64,000 nt of DNA from contig BAAIJX010000010.1 in assembly GCA_054600435.1 (NCBI GenBank), forward strand, positions 248,001-312,000. Reading direction: 5' to 3'. Shown in pieces: positions 15,043-62,409 of the stretch. The stretch is from Neophaeotheca triangularis. Taxonomy: Eukaryota. The first letter of the stretch is position 1. Each line of letters begins with the position of its first letter. The notes under the pieces were generated by a model. It searched no databases. It worked only from the letters and a program-made list of their open reading frames with translations, and was not told the origin of the DNA. The translations under genes were made by a program, and so were the position numbers.

Positions 15043-17221
15043 TCAACCAACCTTAACCTTCTTCTCCCCGCCAGCATTCCCAGCCTCGTCCACTTTCCTC
15101 TTCTCCCCCACCGCTCCGCCAGCAGCAGCAGCAGCAGCACCCCCGTTCTCTCCCGCCTTCTCCTTCTCCCTCGCCGCCCTCCTAGCCTCCCGCTCCCCCC
15201 TTTCCTTCTCCTTCCTCAGCGCCTTGGACTCAAACTCATGCCACTCACCGACCAGCTCCTCCAACTCGACCGGCTTCGCCTCCTTGGGCTCCTCGCTAGC
15301 GAAATAAGGGTGCTCGAGCACTTCAGCAGCAGATGGGCGCTTGGCGTGATCATACTGGAACATGGCCGCCAAGAGGTCGAACGCTTGCTCGGAGACGCGG
15401 TCTTTGTACTTTTCGGCGAAGGAATTGGGTTGGCGTTGACCAGGGCGGAGGAGCTCGTACCACTGCAGGTCAACGATGCCGGGCCAGTCGGTGCGGCTGG
15501 GCGTGCCGAGGACGTTGTAGATTTTGTCGAGTTGGTTGATTTCGCCGCCGTCGCCGGGGAAGATGGCGTGGCGGGTGAAGACCTCTACGAGGACGCAGGC
15601 CGCGCTCCAGATGTCCACGGCCGGGCCGTATTGCGTTTCGCCCAGCAGCAGCTCGGGGCTGCGGTACCAGATGGTGATGACGCGGTTCGTGTAGTCCTGT
15701 TTCGCGCGTTTCTGATAAAAGCGCGCGAGACCGAAGTCGGCGAGTTTAAGCTCGCCGGTCTTGCTGACGAGGATGTTGGCGGCCTTGATGTCGCGGTGAA
15801 GGACGCCGCGGCGGTGGAGGTAGTCGAGGCCTTCGAAAAGTTGGCGCGCCAGGTGCTTTTTGTGCGCCGTCGTGAGTGAAAAGGTTGGGTGGTTGAGCAG
15901 GCCTGTGAGGTCGTGAGAGAGGTACTCGAATACCATGAAGCAGTCGTTGCGTTCAACCATTACTTCTTGTAGGGCCACTATGTTGACATGCTTGAGGGAT
16001 TGGAGGAGCTTGATCTCGCGGATGGCGGTGACCGGAAACTGATCGCCATGGTTAGCAAGAGCTCTGGAAGTGGATGTGTCTGCAGTGAGGACTTACCCCG
16101 TCTCTTTCACCTTCCATGCGGATCTTCTTGAGCGCAACCAAACCTCCTGTGTACACGTGCACTGCTTTGTATACTTTGCCATAAGTGCCAGAGCCCACAA
16201 CGGACTCATTACCTGTCTTTCTGAAATACACACTCTCAGAGCTTTTGAACTCTTCGCCGAGCTCTGGTCTAGGCTTTAGTCTCTTCTTCTTAATCTTTTC
16301 CTTGCGAACCGGTGGAGGGGAGGGCTTCTTCGGTGTAGTGTTCACCCGCGTGTTTCCAACGTAGTTCGCACTCTTGGGCGCAGCAAGTTTGGCTACTGCC
16401 GGATCCGGAGGCGGTTTCGTGACAGGTGCATCTGCGATCGGATTCTTCCTTCTAAGTACAGGCGACGGCTCGCGAGCGGCTTCCTTTTTAGCAGCACTGC
16501 CCTTGATCGAAAAACTCATCTTTGGCTTAGGTGCCTCGGTATCGGCGGCTTTCGCTTCCTCAGGCTTTACCGCAACACTTGAAGGAACGCTTGAGTTCTG
16601 AGCTGCGCCAGCGGTTGAAGGGTGTGAGGTCTTGCGCTTCTTGTGGGCGCCCTCGTCCTCGGCGCGCAAGTCTGCAGGTGGTCGGAAAGGGTTGTCGTCG
16701 TCGTCGTCGTCTGTCGGTGGGTTTGCGAGCGCGTCTTGTGTAAGGTCTTGTCCGGAAGCGGAGGCGGGCGGTGGGGGCGCTGAACCGGAACCTTGACGTT
16801 GAGTACGTGCAGCATCGCCAGGTTTAACAAGATGCCCACCTTTCACACCATCACCTGGCGTCCACGACAGATTGGCAAAATGTCCTCCTCTAGCACCTGT
16901 TCCGCCTCTCGCAGCGGGGCCACCTCTACCCCGCGAACTTGCTGCTGCATCGCGTGGTGCGGCTGGCCCGCCATGGTTCGGCGACGCACCGTAAGATGAC
17001 GAGACGGGAGCTGGTGGCTGATGGTGAGGTCCCGAAGGCGCGCCCCTATATTGTTGCTGATAAGCATATGAAGATTGGCGGTTGGGGTAATTGTGCATCG
17101 ATGATCCGTGATGCTGCGGGTAGCCCGATGGTGGGTAACCGTGATGGCCGTATGATGAGTGTGACGGGGGGTAGCCGCGGCCGGAGCCATACCGTGGATC
17201 ATAGCCACCGCGATTGTACAT
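15043..17221 (-). CDS. CTK1: RNA polymerase II CTD kinase subunit (Ctk1/CDK12-like); intron 16039-16096
   Basis: GSGTYGKVYKA, ERDG|FPVTAIREIKLL, HRDIKAANIL, DFGLAR, YTNRVITIWYRSPELLLG. The start at MYNRGG is inferred. Confidence 0.88.
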
Positions 17222-20394: not shown

Positions 20395-21524
20395 ATGGAC
20401 CACTCACCACACGCCCCCCGACCCAAACCTATCCCTCCACACCTAGTCAACGGTCACTCGCCTCTACATCCGCGCGCCAACGGCGCCCACTCCAAAGACG
20501 AACGTGACAGCACCTTTGCCTCGATCAAATCCAGCATGGGTCCCAAAAAGGAGCCGCTCGACCTCGAGAACCCTTCGCAGTCTCTCAACAGCCACGCGCC
20601 ATCCTCCTCGTCCTCTTCATCCCTCCCCAACGGCTCGCAACAACAAGAAAACTCCTCCCGCCAGTACGAAGAAGTCCAAGACAACGACATCAACCACATC
20701 GACCTTTCCAGCATCGACCTCAAAGTCGCCGCCCGCGATGGCCGTGACGAAGCACCCCAGACCCCTCTCGCAACCGCCCGCTCCAACTCTCCGTTCACCC
20801 AAAACCCCACCATCGACTTCGAAGGCCTGTCATGGCCCTCAGTAGGCACGCTCTCTCGGCTCCAAGAGCGCGAATCCCCCGCCGATGCGCAGGCGCGGTT
20901 GGAAAAACTCTCAGGGGCTGTGCGAACGATACTAGAGTGCATTGGCGAGGATCCAGACCGCGAAGGTTTGCACGGCACGCCGGAGCGGTACGCCAAGGCT
21001 ATGATGTTTTTCACCAAGGGCTATGAGGAGAATTTGCGCGATATTGTTAACGGGGCTGTCTTTCATGAGGATCACGATGAGTTGGTCATTGTGAGGGACA
21101 TTGAGGTTTACAGTCTTTGCGAGCATCATCTGGTGCCATTCACCGGGAAGGTAGGTTCTCCCTTGCTGAGACCCGTAGGCTGGTAAGGGCTGTGGGCGGT
21201 GTGATGCTAACTTCATCATAGATGCATATTGGCTATATCCCCTCTCGCAGAGTCATTGGTCTCTCGAAGCTCGCGCGTATTGCTGAGATGTTCAGCCGCA
21301 GACTGCAGGTGCAGGAGCGCTTGACCAAGCAGGTTGCTCTCGCGCTGTCCGATGTGCTCAAGCCGCAGGGTGTGGCGGTTGTCATGGAGAGTAGCCATAT
21401 GTGTATGGTTATGCGTGGCGTGCAGAAGGCCGGGGCGACGACTACGACAAGCTGTATGCTGGGCGCCATGAGGAAGAGGGCCAAGACAAGGGAGGAGTTC
21501 TTGAGCCTGCTCAAGGGTCGGTGA
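20395..21524 (+). CDS. FOL2: GTP cyclohydrolase I; intron 21151-21221
   Basis: [61 protein letters not shown]. Confidence 0.95.
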
Positions 21525-21990
21525 GGACAGGTTGGTCACGTGAAAGAATTGCGGGAAAGGTGGATCAGGTGACATACAGGTGAAGGCATGGTGTTTGCGG
21601 CGTTTGGCGTGACTGGTGTCGAGGTTGAGGCTGGCATTGTTGTTGCCATGGGCGGAGAATGGTGGCCAATTCAACAGGCACGGGCATGAAAATGATACCA
21701 CGACGCTCAACGCAGCGTAAGTCTTGCTTTTCTCTTGTCTTCGAAAAAGTAAGGGGCTTACTACACTCATTCAGTACAGCTCGAATTAAAACTTAGATGA
21801 CAATACTCGCTGGCGTACCAAGCACGGGAAAAGAAGGCGACCTCAGGCCAGCCCACGGAGTGCACGTCCCTATCGGTAGGAGAGAATCCCATCAGTTGCA
21901 ATGGGTCTATATATTCGTCTCGCCGCGCTAGCCTCCATAAACCAGGACGCCTCTGCCCCTGTAGCAACCTAAGTTGAACATTAACTACAG

Positions 21991-22164
21991 CGGGAGTGGA
22001 ATGCTAGTGTAGTGGTTAGGCTTAAGTTCTAACCGCTACCTAGTCAGCTTGCAATTAGCAAAGCCGGCGAAATCGCTAACCGGCCTTGGGTGTCCTTGTT
22101 TGATCGAAGGCTCTAGGTTCGACTCCTATACCAAAGTCCATTCGGATGGCGCCTCGATATTTTT
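21991..22164 (+). ncRNA. Putative Pol III-transcribed, tRNA-derived structured RNA (not a canonical cloverleaf)
   Basis: A-box-like TAGTGTAGTGG 22005-22015, B-box GGTTCGACTCC 22116-22126 in a T-arm hairpin, several further stems, and oligo-T runs from 22160. Confidence 0.55.
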
Positions 22165-22663
22165 GCCGTTTTTCACGGGTTTTCTTTTTGAGCGGCTGCA
22201 GGTGGGAGAGGTGAGGTGGATTTTTTTTACTATGTGAGTGTATTGGACATCTGGTTTTCTGTCTATCACTGGATGGTACTGACAATAGAGTGTAGCCTTG
22301 CTATTGTCGTCGCCTAGCAACCTTGGGCTTCAACGTCACCTCACGCCCCTTGAAGCTTTCAAAACTGCGCGCGCGACTTTCAACAGCAACACCCTCTCTC
22401 TCACACCCAACATTCCTCTCTCGTTCCGCATCTTCGGCACTATCTGAACATCCTCATCAGTGGCTTCTCTACGCGCTGATCATCATCATATTCAGTACCA
22501 TCAGCGCATTGCAAAGCTGCAGACCTCGCATCCTCACCACACCCGTATTCCTCACTACCAGACTTCGACGCATCGTCAGCTCAAAGACTCTGCCAGTCAG
22601 GTACATCACTTTCCTTCATACCATCTTTCACCTTCACACATCCCCCAAGGATATGGCAATCTA

Positions 22664-23827
22664 ATGGCCATCGACAGACTCTACTACTTCTGCGTGACGG
22701 TGTTCACGGTCACCTTCTGCTACACCACGCACTACCAGAACTGGGACGGTCGCAAGGAAGGCGGCACCGTCGGCAACATCTGGCGCTACAGTGAGGAGAA
22801 GAGCAAGAAGGCTGCAGAGAAAAAAAATACTGAGCACTCATCAAAGCATAGGCGTAGAAAGGAGAGGCGCTCATTCCGCCACCGTCAAGCAACCAGAGCT
22901 CGCGAACTCGACGACTTTCTGTACGCTAGAGATGGAGCAGTCGGGGAAGACTTCCTCCGCGCGCGCGACGGGTTCATCATCGGAGAATCCGCAGCAGCAG
23001 GACATGGAGATGTTGGACACGCCTCAGAGCCATTCCCAGCCTACCCACAACCCGCAGCCACCGCCTACCCTCCTTACCCAAGCTCAACCCAGTGGTATGA
23101 GCCCATCCCAAGATACACAAGCAATGAGGGCGCATCCCCCCGTTACCATCACTGGGCTAACAGTTCTGACGCAAGGTCTGGGGATCGGGCTAGGTCTGAC
23201 CATGGCCAACGCCGAACCAGCGAGCGCAGGCAGCGCAGCTCAAGGCACGGCGGAGGATCATCTTCCAGCTACAGCCCCAACAGCACCGACTGGCGTCACG
23301 GAGACACCGTCCGCTCAGACGGGTCAGTCCGCCGCGCAGGCAGTCGCACTCCATCAGCTGGCAACGCCTCCGACGACATTGAGCTCGACACATACCCACA
23401 CTCATCCTTCGAGCCAGCACGCGATAGCCGCAACCGCAACGACGCCTTCGAGCGCTCTCCTACCAGCAACCGCGCCTATGTTATACCACAACGTCGCTCA
23501 AGCTCAGGCCGCACCCAATCTAGCGTCGTCGGCCGCCCCCCTATCGGCTCCGATCGTCCCGCTTCATCCATCAACACTCAGCGCAACAGCGCTTCAGTGG
23601 CCAATGAGCGCTTCGATGAATATTACGGGCCTGCCGCCCCCCAGGAGCGCAGGGGGACGACCGATGCTATCCCCCGCGACGTTCCCGATGGACACGGTGG
23701 TGGCGGAGCAGGCGGAGATGGCCGTACAACATCGCGCCTTCATTCAGAAGAGCGTCGCCCAGGTGGCAGACAACGTAGTCGCAGCTACTCTAGCAGGCGA
23801 CGGAGCGAGTCTCACCAACGATACTGA
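22664..23827 (+). CDS. Hypothetical 387-aa protein: N-terminal hydrophobic segment plus Arg/Ser-rich disordered tail
   Basis: Long ORF with C-ending codon bias in its non-overlapped 5' part; hydrophobic LYYFCVTVFTVTFCY; overlaps the next ORF in another frame. Confidence 0.55.
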   Translation: MAIDRLYYFCVTVFTVTFCYTTHYQNWDGRKEGGTVGNIWRYSEEKSKKAAEKKNTEHSSKHRRRKERRSFRHRQATRARELDDFLYARDGAVGEDFLRARDGFIIGESAAAGHGDVGHASEPFPAYPQPAATAYPPYPSSTQWYEPIPRYTSNEGASPRYHHWANSSDARSGDRARSDHGQRRTSERRQRSSRHGGGSSSSYSPNSTDWRHGDTVRSDGSVRRAGSRTPSAGNASDDIELDTYPHSSFEPARDSRNRNDAFERSPTSNRAYVIPQRRSSSGRTQSSVVGRPPIGSDRPASSINTQRNSASVANERFDEYYGPAAPQERRGTTDAIPRDVPDGHGGGGAGGDGRTTSRLHSEERRPGGRQRSRSYSSRRRSESHQRY

Positions 23828-52963: not shown

Positions 52964-55309
52964 AGCGTTGAGGGTTTTAATAGATGAGGCATAGGGGGTG
53001 GCAGTGGAAGTCAATAGTCAGAGGATGGCGGCGGTGTTTGGTGTGGGGAGAGTGCGGTTGGTGCGTGAAGGAGAAGAGACGGAATGAGTGAGAAAGGCAG
53101 TGGGTTGGAAGTGTCATTGCTACTTTATGTAGCCACACTATGGAAAGCGCTGTTGATTCGCAAGGCTTTTGCTGCAGTATAGTTTAAACTATTGGTAAGT
53201 GCACCCCTATAAACTATTGTACAACTACTCTGGACTACTCTGCTTCAGGATGTCAGAGCCATCGGTCTCTAGTAATCCCAAAGCTTGGCGGTGCTCCATT
53301 AGCAGCGCTTCCGTTTCAGGCTTCCTCAGCACTACAACACATTAACACCTTAATAGGGCCAAGCACCTCTACCACTAGGATAGCGGCGGTGATAGTCTGC
53401 CCTGCAACTTAACAACGTGTGTCCTACAACAAGTTACGAACTAACACTGGTAATTTTCTTTGATTTCACACCGCTTTATCGGGTTTTCGTACTGACTTGA
53501 CGCAATCTCAGGGGTTTTGTGAACCCTGCTTGTGGAAGGGGCACTGTGTACCAGACTTTCACATTCGGTATCCATCGACCCTCCGGTGGAACTCGCACTC
53601 TTGCGGAAGAGGTCTAGATCCATTGCAACTCCAGAGACAAGAGTCACACTCCCAGCTCTATCTCCGCAACATTGCCACCGGTTCGAAAAGGCATTTGGTA
53701 TCAATTCGCCAAACAAGCCGCATAACATCACCTTTTGAAGTGCAACGGCGGTCTCCATTCTCGAATGCGCGCCATAGCAGCCTTGACGAAAGCCTTGGTG
53801 ATACTTTCCTCATCTCGTACAATTACTTCTGCGCCTCTCCGCAACGTAAAAACATCTACAAACACCATAAAGCGTGAACATGCCTGTCAAAGTCCGAGCC
53901 CAGTCGCTAGCCAAGGAGAACGCCAGACCTCGTGAGGACGATCTACATTTTCTGTTCCTGACCTTGCCGGCGGAGTGCATACGGAATTGGACTCACACCG
54001 TCAACACCGACTACAGGTGCGTCCTCAAAGCACGGAACCCTTTTTACATCATGCTGGACGTTGGCTTCCGACTCGAGTCAATCGAGGCTCTTCCACCTAC
54101 AACACCCAAAGACGCAACCCGTGCCACCTCCGTTATGGTATCGCATCACATCATAAGCATCATGGCTAGGCAAGCGTGGATTTTCAGAAACGAGATAAAT
54201 ACCGATCGCGAGCTTGGTATCCCCATTTGTAAGATGCATTGACCTGAATGATGAGACAGTTGGAAGCGGGCATCAGCCAAAGGGACGCTAGAAAGGAAGA
54301 CCGTACCAAAATGGCTTGAGTTCGGGATATTGGGAAGTTGGGAACAGACTAAGGCTGGACACTTAGCGAAGCGGGCGAACTGACGAATGTTCTGGAAACT
54401 GATCAATGTCACTGAGACGCGGGTTCAAGATGAAGAAGGGTCTGATAGAGTTTGTTGCAGCGGCATACATTTCTTTTGTGCCTCATAGACGGGGCAATAA
54501 TGAAATACTCGTCTGGATGCAAATTGGCTCTGGAAAAGACAGCAACTAGCCCAAGCGTGATACAAGTATCTTTACCGTCATTCAATCACACTGAAATGCC
54601 GGTCGGATCGATTGCCTGCGTGGTTTACTCGCCCTCCCTAGCTTGTAGATTGAAAGTCTTCTTTTGCAAAGCAGAATGAGTGCAACTGCAGAGGGCTACC
54701 GGGAAGAAATAGAGTCGCCGTTGTTTGTGGGTTTGCATCAGAAAAGAAGTTGGCAGCGCGCAAGGACAGAAGTGGTTGCTTTTGCCAATGGCAAGGCTCA
54801 ACAGAAGGTCAAGAGTGGAAATGAAGAAAGAAGAGCGACAAGGAAAAGTTGAGAGAAGACTCGCAAGAGTGAAAGCGAGGCTTCTAAAGTGTTCAAGCAG
54901 AAGACTGGTGAGTAGAAGTTGAGAAAGGAGGCGAGAAAGAAGTAGTAGTGCACAAGTATGATTTCCATTCGCTACTCCGCCAACCGCTCAGTCCTGTAAA
55001 CCAGAGCAGTCGGCAGAAGGCAGCTTTCAAATCTAGATACTGTGCATAAGGAGCGACTACAGTCAGTCGGAGAGCAAAACACATCAAGTCATGGAGAGAA
55101 GGAGGAGAGCCTGATTCTCTCCTGGGTCCTTCTCCTTCAGATCAATCCATCACTGCTTCCCATCACAACTTCCATCCCAAACAAAAATCGAAAAATCCCC
55201 CAAATTGTTCCAGTGGGCTCGTTCGCGGAAAAGACCAGCAGTCCCGGTACTAGAGTCGTGGTAGCGTTGGGGGTGGCTTCGTGGAGCCTCGTGTCGTCGG
55301 TAGAGTAGT

Positions 55310-55949
55310 TTACCAGACCGAGGAGGCGACCTTGGCCTGGGCTGCGGGGGCAGCCTCGGCACCACCGTAGGCAGCAACGGCCTCGGTGAAGTCGCCGTCG
55401 ATCTTCTTGAGTGCGGCCTGGCCGTCGGTCTTGGTGTCCGCGGCGGCGATGCCGATGTAGCTCTCACCAAGGGCGTTGGTCTTCTCGCGGAGCGAGTTGA
55501 TGTCCTTGGTGGCTTTGCCCTTCAGGTTGGACCCGTCGAAGGCATCCTGCTTCTCAACCATCATGTCGAGCGTTCCGGCAATGCTGGGCTCGAGCGTGGT
55601 GTTGATGTAGTTGATGAGCGAGTTGGAGTCCTCGCTGGAGAGCTCCTCGGAAGACTTAGCGTTCTCGCTGGCGGTCTCGATGCTCTTCTCGAGCTTGCTC
55701 TCAGCAGACTCAACAGGGATGGCAGAGACGAGGCCACCGCCGTACTGAGGAGTTGGAAGTTAGCTTTGCCATCGAGATAGTTGTGCTGCGAATGCGTACC
55801 TTGTTGACCGCTTCGGTCAACTGAGTAAGGTCGGAGTTGATCGTCTTCAGGTCAGAAGCGATGGTCTGGACATCGCGGCGGAGGACAGCAGCGCTGACGG
55901 CGGTGGAGACGCTCAAGGCGGAAAGGATGACGTTCTTGACGGAAGGCAT
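55310..55949 (-). CDS. Secreted HsbA / cell-wall mannoprotein family protein; intron 55745-55799
   Basis: Signal peptide, dibasic RR site, helical DVQTIASDL.TI..L..L..AV.., KIDGDFTEAVAAY; strong codon bias. Confidence 0.8.
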
Positions 55950-59918: not shown

Positions 59919-62409
59919 TTACTGGGGGGACTTGGCACCACCCTGACCGTTGCGACGGTCGCCGTCATTGCCGAGACCAAGGTTGCCCATGCCAGTGTTG
60001 AGGAAGGACAAGTTGAGGTCAGCGCCGCCGTCGTTGCCGCTGTATCCAGCGTTGCCGTAGCCGGAGTTGCCATAAGAAGCGCCGTTGGGGTAACCAGGAG
60101 CGCCGCTTGCGGCCGACTGGTTGCCCTGGTTGAAGGCCTGTTCGGCACGGCTGTCGAACCCACCAGCGTTGGCCTGCATACCGCTAGAGTAGCCGCCAGC
60201 CATGTAAGGGCTAGGAGCGCCCAGACCGGAAGGAAGAGCGTAGGTCGATGGGGGACCGCCGTAGTTCTGACCGTCGTAGCCGCCCGGGGGACCGCCCATG
60301 CCGCTGTTGCCACCATAACCACTCTGAGAGCTTGGGCCCATCCCACCGTAGCTGCTACCACCCATGGAACCACCACCGTAACCACCAGCGCCACCGCCAG
60401 GTGGACCATAGTTGTTGCCGGGAAACTGCTGCATGCCACCTTCCGCAACAACAGCGGCGTTGCTCCTGGAAGCACCGCACCTCAAGCATGATACGTTCTT
60501 GGCGAAGTTGTGGTAGGCGCAGCCTTCGTTGCCGCACTTCCAATCTCCAGCCCTGAATGGAACAATGCCACCGCGGCTGCTAGAAGAACCTCCCATTCCA
60601 CCCATGCCACCACCGTATCCGCCACCATGCATGTGAGGTGGTCCACCCATCATACCAGGGTGGTTGCCGTAACCGCCACCGTAAGGACCATGCTGCATAC
60701 CGTATCCACCGCTGCTGTAGGGGTCAGCTGGGCCGGCACCCATGGCCGGGAAGGAGCAACGGAAGCATGCTGTGCGACGCTGAAAGTTGCTGAAACCGCA
60801 GCTTGGGCAGGTCCAGTCACCAGGACGAGGCCTGTTCTTGGACGGGGGGAACGGAGTGAGGAGCGGTGGACCACCTGGTGGGTGGGAGCCTGCGGCGCGG
60901 TCAAGCACTCTGGAGGAGGAAGGCGAAACCTCGATCGCGCGGTCGTTGAGTGCGCGTCCGTTCATGCTAAGAGACTCAGCAGCCTGGAAGAGATTGTTAG
61001 CTCGGCCTCAGTCTGTGTAGAACTGTACTCGAGTAGTGACGAGCTGTGGCGTATTCTTTGTTTTTACAGAGGCGCCGCAAATCAAATTTGAAGGAAACAG
61101 ACCGCACTTTGACCCCCTGTCAAGATCAGGAAGACATGACGTCAAGTGTCGGACGATCGGTTGCATTGCCGACACCAAGCAAAAAGTACCTCAAAGCAGG
61201 AGTAATTAAAAGTAGAAAAAAAGCGTTGACGAGAGAAAGCAAGGGAAATCGCGAAAACTGACCTCTTCATGACCGCCAAAAACAACAAAGCCGCTGCCGC
61301 TCGGCTTTCCGCCCTCGGGCGTGCGGAGTGTCCAGAAAGCAATCGGGCGACCTCCATACTGAGTGAACCAAGATTCCAATTCACTTTGGGTCGTGTCGTG
61401 AGGAAGACCGCTCAAGTGGAGGACCTTGGAACGCTCGGCAAGGAATGCCCTAACGTCGCTACGAGCATCGAGAGGCCGAGTCATGACATCCATGTCACCC
61501 TGGGGGTTCGTCTGAGAAGGACGCGACTTCTGGACAAGCGAGCGAAGGCATCGAGTCAGAGTCAGAGCCTCCTCGAGAGCGCGGCGCGGCGAGGATGGCG
61601 CGAGTGCCTGCAAGTGGAAGGGCAGACCTCCAGTGACTTTGCCGGAGGAGCGGACCTCCTCGACCTCAAGACCGGCGCAGATGGACGATAGGCTAGATGA
61701 GCTGAAAGCCAGGGTCTCGGGGTGGTGAGACTGGAAGGTCTGGTACTCGCCGCGAAGGCCGAACAGCACTGGGTGCTGAAGGTATGGGGGGAGCACAACG
61801 TTCTTGTCGCGAGCCTCACGGGGCAGCTGCACACGAAGATCCCATGGCGTCAAGGTGACGAAAGCGAACGTTGGAGGCGCGCCAGGTCCCGCATCCTTGG
61901 GCACAAGGTGCTCACTAGCATAGGCATCGAAAGCCGCAATGGCATCGCGGAAGCTGCCAGCTTGACGGACGTGCTCCCAAGTGAGAGTGGTCAGGGAAGT
62001 GCACAGGGGCGTGATCGGCGTGTTGACGGGCTTGACGAGGACGGACTGGTGGTGGAGCTGCGGAGAGATTAATGAGCCATCACTATAATACGTTTACCGC
62101 AGAAATACATACCTCCGGAAGGGCAGGGTCCCTCGCATCCACAACAGTCCAGCCGAGCTCGATAACCTCTGCGCTGTCCTTGGTTACGTAGACGCCGTGC
62201 TCATCGCAGGTAGTAGCGATGTGAATGATGCAGTACTTGTCGAACTGCGGCGGCTGGGAAGCCGCCGTGGGAGGGTATTGGCCTTGAGCAGACTGGCTTT
62301 GGCGAGATTCAGTACCGTAGGGCGCTGGTGCACCGCTTTGTGGGCCCGCGGAGCCTGGGGTTGGGTATGGGTTGCCCTGGTAAGGCTGGGCTTGGGTGGG
62401 AGTTGCCAT
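59919..62409 (-). CDS. NRP1: RNA-binding protein (exonuclease-like N-terminal domain, RRM, two RanBP2 zinc fingers, Gly/Tyr-rich tail); introns 62058-62112 and 60984-61262
   Basis: ATTCDEHGVYVTKDSAEVIE, LSGLPHDTTQSELESWF, RPGDWTCPSCGFSNFQRRTACFRC, RAGDWKCGNEGCAYHNFAKNVSCLRC. Confidence 0.88.

Follow-up and report, generated by a model that had tools for sequence, protein, structure and literature searches.

Relics of tRNA genes that retain an A/B-box promoter have been described in yeast: ZOD1 goes back to an ancient tRNA-Ile gene and still shows weak Pol III transcription, and the YGR033C relic descends from a tDNA-Arg, while RNA170 is a yeast Pol III RNA of unknown function (cited sections of PMC5356446 and PMC5911963). 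The element described here (21991-22164 of the window, i.e. of the whole stretch of 64,000 nt that was analysed) resembles these relics in that it appears to be a single-copy, intergenic ex-tRNA gene with a retained A/B-box promoter. It differs in that the yeast loci, according to the same sections, still bind the Pol III machinery and give rise to low levels of transcript, whereas the evidence for the present locus is its sequence; moreover, its spacing between A and B box is unusually long, and it carries a 16-bp hairpin that arises from its own D-arm word and an inverted copy of it. The yeast relics and this element have no sequence relationship.

A second group of relevant elements is AfuSINE2 of Aspergillus fumigatus, whose members are 140-493 bp long, contain A and B boxes together with a tRNA-unrelated part, and form no cloverleaf; three were single copy by Southern blot and five of eight were transcribed (PMC5063351, in the sections cited). 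The likeness to the present element comprises the host (a filamentous ascomycete), the length range, the tRNA-related head, the absence of a cloverleaf and a low or single copy number. However, the AfuSINE2 boxes are degenerate and target-site duplications of 4-14 bp flank the element (PMC5063351, same sections), whereas the present element has two perfect boxes and neither a convincing duplication nor a tail, and its T-run terminators lie directly 3′.

Two further systems share part of this organization. The ETC sites of Saccharomyces cerevisiae are isolated perfect B boxes between Pol II genes, and this locus, like them, could bind TFIIIC and act as DNA; ETC sites are TFIIIC-only in the sections cited (PMC5356446), while this locus adds an A box and terminators, which complete the layout of a gene. 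In Neurospora, Pol III transcribes the hairpin RNA milR-4 together with tRNAs, and RNase Z frees it (PMC3547838, in the part cited), thus providing a fungal Pol III unit that joins a hairpin to a tRNA-type module. However, milR-4 is located between two intact tRNA-Ala genes according to the same text, whereas the hairpin of the present element lies upstream of a degenerate, D-arm-less module, which is predicted not to fold. The main texts of the literature on fungal Pol III RNAs offered relic, SINE and milRNA precedents, and no description of this element was found in them.

Genomic setting and layout of the element

The element is preceded on the + strand by a two-exon GTP cyclohydrolase I gene (20395-21524), with exons at about 20395-21150 and 21222-21524 separated by a short intron; Pfam PF01227 matches with E-values of 4e-26 and 3e-41, and the nearest Atlas clusters of this gene are ascomycete. 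Long + strand frames follow downstream, from 22448, and they match no Pfam family. With the ascomycete-like GTP cyclohydrolase I on one side and the long frames on the other, the element lies between genes of an ascomycete, whose genome amounts to about 33 Mb by contig totals. A CT-rich, promoter-like stretch (about 22385-22430) lies ahead of the long frame of the next gene, and the cluster of T runs listed below is found 160-280 nt upstream of that stretch; alternatively, this cluster could serve the next Pol II gene as a poly(dT) element of its promoter.

Every motif listed in the original prediction was found at its position when read back from the sequence. The features are:

22005-22015, + strand: A-box-like word TAGTGTAGTGG, read from the sequence
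22005-22019, + strand: A-box / D-arm-like word TAGTGTAGTGGTTAG, from a search allowing at most two mismatches; found in D-arms of tRNA-Gln and tRNA-His genes
22116-22126, + strand: perfect B box GGTTCGACTCC, an exact consensus match
22114-22128, + strand: T-arm hairpin enclosing the B box, the sole match of the tRNA model R1
22003-22044, + strand: long hairpin of 5 + 11 pairs, with one bulged T and a 9-nt loop
22049-22061, + strand: small hairpin TTGC/GCAA, read from the sequence
22063-22084, + strand: hairpin GCCGG/CCGGC, read from the sequence
22085-22092/22129-22136, + strand: acceptor-like stem with one G-A mismatch
22094-22110, + strand: anticodon-like hairpin CCTT/AAGG, 4 pairs and a 9-nt loop
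22085-22137, + strand: D-arm-less, tRNA-like 3′ module, consisting of acceptor-like stem, anticodon-like hairpin, T arm and a discriminator-like T
21994-22000/22137-22143, + strand: closing stem of 7 pairs, one of them G-T
22160-22228, + strand: terminator-like array T5, T5, T4-C-T5, T8, from the T-run count
22160-22164 (T5), 22169-22173 (T5), 22180-22183 (T4), 22185-22189 (T5) and 22221-22228 (T8), + strand: the single T runs, from the same count
21795-22226, no strand: invariant block of 432 bp, without any difference in strain X2, with the element inside

The arrangement corresponds to that of a type-2 Pol III unit, since the A box is followed by the B box on one strand and an oligo-T terminator is found shortly 3′ (T5 at 22160, then T5, T4CT5 and T8). 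A distance of 96 nt separates the D-arm word TAGTGTAGTGGTTAG from the perfect B box, which follows it on the + strand as it would in a tRNA gene, and the T-run cluster begins 34 nt past the B box. The A-to-B-box spacing in ordinary tRNA genes is shorter than these 96 nt between the words. Between the D-arm word and the anticodon-like hairpin there is a spacer of about 74 nt, which contains an inverted copy of the D-arm word. Around position -30 relative to the expected start there is no TATA-like word; the closest is TATATATT at 21909-21916.

Pol III signals and tRNA ancestry

Most of the signals are weak when they are taken singly. The A-box consensus TRGCNNAGTGG, from which the word of the element deviates at one position, has 35 matches with at most one mismatch in the 64-kb window, compared with 26.8 expected, i.e. 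not more than chance. The B-box consensus GGTTCGANTCC is matched exactly by 22116-22126; this is the one exact match in the window, where 0.20 are expected, and 18 of 100 shuffles contain one. The 15-mer TAGTGTAGTGGTTAG, with up to two mismatches allowed, also has one match, compared with 0.05 expected in 64 kb, and the D-arms of tRNA-Gln and tRNA-His genes on metagenome loci L001, L003 and L006 carry the same 15 letters. Runs of five or more T number 41 on the + strand and 48 on the - strand of the window; the sole cluster of at least three such runs within 75 nt, on both strands of the 64 kb, is that at 22160-22228. Together, the D-arm word, the B box in a T arm and the T-run cluster stand out, and since this combination exceeds chance, the sequence indicates that the tRNA-gene origin and the Pol III gene layout are real.

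The opposite reading, that the motifs co-occur by chance within ordinary intergenic DNA, is very improbable. It may appeal to the A-box consensus and the B box, each unremarkable singly, and to the fact that scanning very many windows yields accidental pairs; however, an exact 15-mer, a B box in a 4-bp T stem, order, strand and a unique T-run cluster coincide at this locus, and multiplying the single expectations gives, roughly, a figure far below one per genome.

Searches for known genes gave a consistent picture. ARAGORN reported no tRNA gene in the 64-kb window, nor did it when anticodon-loop introns were allowed at the default threshold; with introns and a threshold of 70-80%, two poor models were obtained, overlapping each other on opposite strands. 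None of the 4,227 Rfam families matched at the gathering score in the 64 kb, and none matched 21850-22300 at E-values up to 10. Two of the checks that had been proposed, an Rfam scan and a tRNA finder, were thus both without a match, in agreement with the original prediction, which had seen no motifs of 5S, U1-U6, SRP or RNase P/MRP: these families have no Rfam match here, and the same is true for vault, Y and snoRNAs.

A set of deletion variants was produced by removing every single segment of 8-130 nt from 21970-22165. Among these 13,808 variants, each lacking a single segment and run without a positive control, none restored an ARAGORN tRNA on the + strand; within the reach of ARAGORN, this excludes an intron-containing tRNA and a tRNA with one insertion, wherever it may lie. 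Rfam E-values carry a factor of 4,227 for the number of families; for this reason R1, a covariance model of tRNA, was built from 20 tRNA genes in the fetched metagenome loci and run with filters off. Its sole match is the T arm at 22114-22128, with 11.2 bits and an E-value of 0.0034 on 551 nt, corresponding to 0.4 for the whole window, and the alignment does not extend past the T arm. ARAGORN, Rfam, the deletion variants and R1 all bear out the absence of a canonical cloverleaf.

The case for a tRNA ancestor thus comes from a D-arm word identical to that of real tRNAs, from a T arm that is the sole R1 match, and from their placement on the same strand in the expected order; these features support a tRNA origin. 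The proposed assignment to tRNA-Gln(UUG) could not be established, since tRNA-His genes share this D-arm word; furthermore, the anticodon-like stem has only 4 pairs and a 9-nt loop.

Predicted folding

The 174-nt + strand has an MFE of -60.5 kcal/mol, with a shuffle z of -2.78, and 3 of 200 shuffles fold equally well. The proposal that nearly the whole interval can pair does not, however, go beyond chance, since 144 of 1,277 genomic 174-nt windows fold equally well or better than the element; the foldability of the whole element is ordinary for this genome. The specific multi-stem architecture fares no better than shuffled sequence, as its energy (-49.0 kcal/mol) equals the shuffle mean (-49.6) and is 11.5 kcal/mol worse than the optimum. 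Five of its seven helices, namely the closing stem, the GCCGG hairpin, the acceptor-like stem, the anticodon-like hairpin and the T arm, have ensemble pair probabilities of at most 0.03, which leaves this fold unsupported. For the closing stem (21994-22000/22137-22143) the value is 0.0, and the MFE optimum pairs 21992-21997 with the B-box region rather than with the closing-stem partner. The 3′ module (22085-22137) shows pair probabilities of at most 0.01 in the full RNA, and when folded alone it adopts a different structure at -9.5 kcal/mol.

The long hairpin (22003-22044) is predicted with pair probabilities of 0.7-1.0 and an energy of -22.5 kcal/mol, a value matched by 5 of 5,330 sampled 44-nt windows. 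According to the folding model, these 16 bp are the only thermodynamically robust stem among those proposed, together with the core of the small TTGC hairpin. The right arm of the hairpin repeats the D-arm word imperfectly in inverted orientation. At the two positions where the arms differ, the + strand has G-U wobbles, and an RNA from the - strand would have A-C mismatches. These two wobbles may be a weak hint of tolerance at the RNA level, with a probability of about 1 in 10 of arising by chance by our own estimate.

The original prediction of a tRNA gene remodelled into a structured Pol III RNA is therefore retained in one part, that is, the tRNA-gene origin and the type-2 Pol III layout, while the specific multi-stem structure is not supported. 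The tRNA-derived feature is real and of a known kind, and the structural claim was an over-reading.

A gene on the minus strand was also considered and rejected: the absolute energy is weaker (MFE -52.9 vs -60.5 kcal/mol) with a similar shuffle z (-2.74 vs -2.78), and the promoter/terminator logic is missing on that strand.

Two other observations concern this region and the window. The palindrome GCCGG-N12-CCGGC at 22063-22084, whose RNA hairpin has a probability of at most 0.03, can be read as CGG-N12-CCG and lies inside the element, upstream of the next gene. Inverted CGG pairs are the kind of site bound by fungal zinc-cluster factors. In coarse scans, the strongest folding stretches of the + strand are at about 15450-15880, 55250-55530, 60085-60128 and 62233-62290, with extremes of -85.3 and -83.0 kcal/mol for 174-nt windows and of -28.9 and -26.0 kcal/mol for 44-nt windows.

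Strain comparison and readings of the locus

In strain X2, which carries the same organism label, one contig of 3,212 nt covers 21300-22800 in one piece. Over this stretch it differs from the window by 26 substitutions and one 9-nt insertion, and a block of 432 bp (21795-22226) is free of differences, while its flanks differ by about 2.8%. The chance of so long a clean gap is 0.004 when the whole stretch is considered and 0.0006 for non-coding positions only. The block, which ends within the last T run (T8), is 2.5 times as long as the element and hence, in this one strain comparison, does not single the element out. The insertion, whose length preserves the reading frame, follows position 22500 and falls into the downstream gene's long + strand frame. 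A 15-nt inverted repeat (21762-21776/22228-22242; 80% complementary) brackets the invariant block and resembles transposon ends; a MITE was nevertheless rejected, as the repeat is weak and holds three strain differences, and no other copy was seen in X2.

No second copy of the element with at least 80% likeness was found among 124,999 X2 contigs, which show presence better than absence; the copy-number check that had been suggested thus returned a single copy in X2, as a weak test on assembly contigs. In organism C, the main contig follows the coding part of GTP cyclohydrolase I at about 80% likeness, skips 21512-21660, matches 21661-21722 and is then unlike the window, which leaves the element uncovered. 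Run X3 provides short low-depth contigs at 21846-21996 and 22095-22245, and run X4 a low-depth 250-nt contig at 22006-22252, with 8 differences, one of them at 22230; both may stem from a minor component. Run X5 covers pieces outside the element only. The cover from organism C, X3, X4 and X5 speaks neither for nor against conservation. A metagenome pattern scan for the D-arm word, followed after 81-111 nt by the B box, returned 8 loci, 6 of which are neighbouring pairs of ordinary tRNA genes and two of which (L002 and L005) are unrelated tRNA-like repeats; no homologue of the element is among the 8.

The reading that we prefer, with a probability of about one half, is that of a tRNA-gene relic that would keep a working or poised type-2 Pol III unit, like yeast ZOD1 or AfuSINE2. 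The element would be a single-copy, lineage-restricted relic of one tRNA gene, or of two tRNA-gene fragments, in which the acceptor stem, the 3′ strand of the D-stem and the anticodon stem decayed or were rearranged, while the A box, the perfect B box and the downstream T-run array were kept intact. Because the boxes are letter-perfect and terminators are present where the tRNA parts are lost, it is the promoter, rather than the tRNA, that appears to have been kept. From the layout we infer that TFIIIC would bind the B and A boxes and place TFIIIB about 30 nt upstream of roughly 21990, and that transcription by Pol III, at a low level, would yield an RNA of about 170 to 240 nt with its end at one of the T runs between 22164 and 22228; the sole stable feature of this predicted RNA would be the 16-bp hairpin at 22003-22044. 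If the locus has a selected role at all, the DNA itself is a likelier basis for it than a folded RNA: TFIIIC or Pol III may be bound here, between two Pol II genes, or the relic may simply be transcribed neutrally. Counted against this reading are the weakness of the A-box and B-box signals when each is taken singly, the possible origin of the T-run cluster in the next gene's promoter, the E-value of 0.4 for the T-arm match at window scale, the box spacing that exceeds that of ordinary tRNA genes, the absent TATA-like word near -30, the width of the invariant block together with the reliance on a single strain comparison, and the X4 contig with its differences.

Neither tRNA nor SINE nor new structured RNA family is an appropriate name for the locus, and the finding is one at the annotation level. 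If TFIIIC or Pol III does bind here, the locus would become a documented tRNA-gene relic outside budding yeast in which the promoter survived the loss of the tRNA; such a pattern bears on Pol III sites that are kept for chromatin or boundary roles, and also on the origin of new Pol III RNAs.

Among the other readings, a dead relic, i.e. a tRNA gene decayed in place and bound by nothing, is unlikely, although it does account for several of the observations. The tRNA shape is wholly lost, and the pattern scan of metagenomes found no homologue. On this reading the T runs, which lie upstream of the CT-rich promoter-like stretch, and the invariant block, which is much wider than the element, would belong to the downstream Pol II promoter or reflect a haplotype or gene-conversion tract shared by the two strains. 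Neutral decay, however, should not spare both promoter boxes letter-perfect while the rest is lost, and no T-run cluster of this kind accompanies any other promoter in the 64 kb, whichever strand is considered. It is distinctly improbable that the locus is a SINE-like retroposon related to tRNA and present in few copies, as AfuSINE2 is, and inserted here as the copy of a composite Pol III transcript. The size, the A and B boxes, the lack of a cloverleaf and the single copies reported for AfuSINE2 (140-493 bp; PMC5063351, in the sections cited) agree with it, and a 9-nt direct repeat, TAGCAACCT, is found at 21962-21970 and 22315-22323; yet chance alone should yield about 0.8 such repeats in a search of 651 nt, by our own arithmetic, and this one encloses five T runs, which a retrocopy could not contain because they would stop Pol III. 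Nor is there an A-rich or simple-repeat tail, with no A run of at least 4 in 21901-22360, and the X2 contigs, a weak test, held no second copy.

It is improbable, too, that the locus encodes a functional structured Pol III ncRNA of about 150-170 nt, built from tRNA parts and selected for its fold or for a cut product. Such an RNA would be in line with the Pol III layout, with the rarity of so strong a hairpin among the sampled windows, with arm substitutions that keep pairing on the + strand only, with the better absolute energy of this strand, and with the invariance of the block in X2; the release of milR-4 by RNase Z from a Pol III transcript containing tRNAs provides a precedent (PMC3547838, in the part cited). 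Against it stand the architecture no better than shuffles, with most of its helices improbable, the ordinary foldability of the whole element, the two wobbles, which are weak evidence, and the homologue searches, which found none and so gave no covariation support. The milR-4 precedent also underlies a variant, held to be just as improbable, in which the locus would be a recent Pol III gene, confined to this species and put together from pieces of tRNA, whose RNA of about 170 nt would have a hairpin leader serving as a small-RNA precursor. The 5′ part would be the 16-bp hairpin, derived from an inverted copy of its own A-box region, and the 3′ part a mini-tRNA-like handle without a D arm (22085-22137), which RNase P and RNase Z would recognise, releasing the hairpin leader; by analogy, the unit would be a mirror image of Neurospora milR-4 and of the herpesvirus tRNA-miRNA units. 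If this were true, the invariant block would reflect selection on that unit.

Related tRNA-like elements, which have no relationship to the present one, were seen on two metagenome contigs (L002:103-215, - strand; L005:1465-1567, + strand). Each of them contains a D-arm word, an insert of about 60-70 nt, a repeated word of the GGACTCGTGATC type and a B box, and ARAGORN calls no tRNA in either; they are probably tRNA-derived repeats of an animal host.
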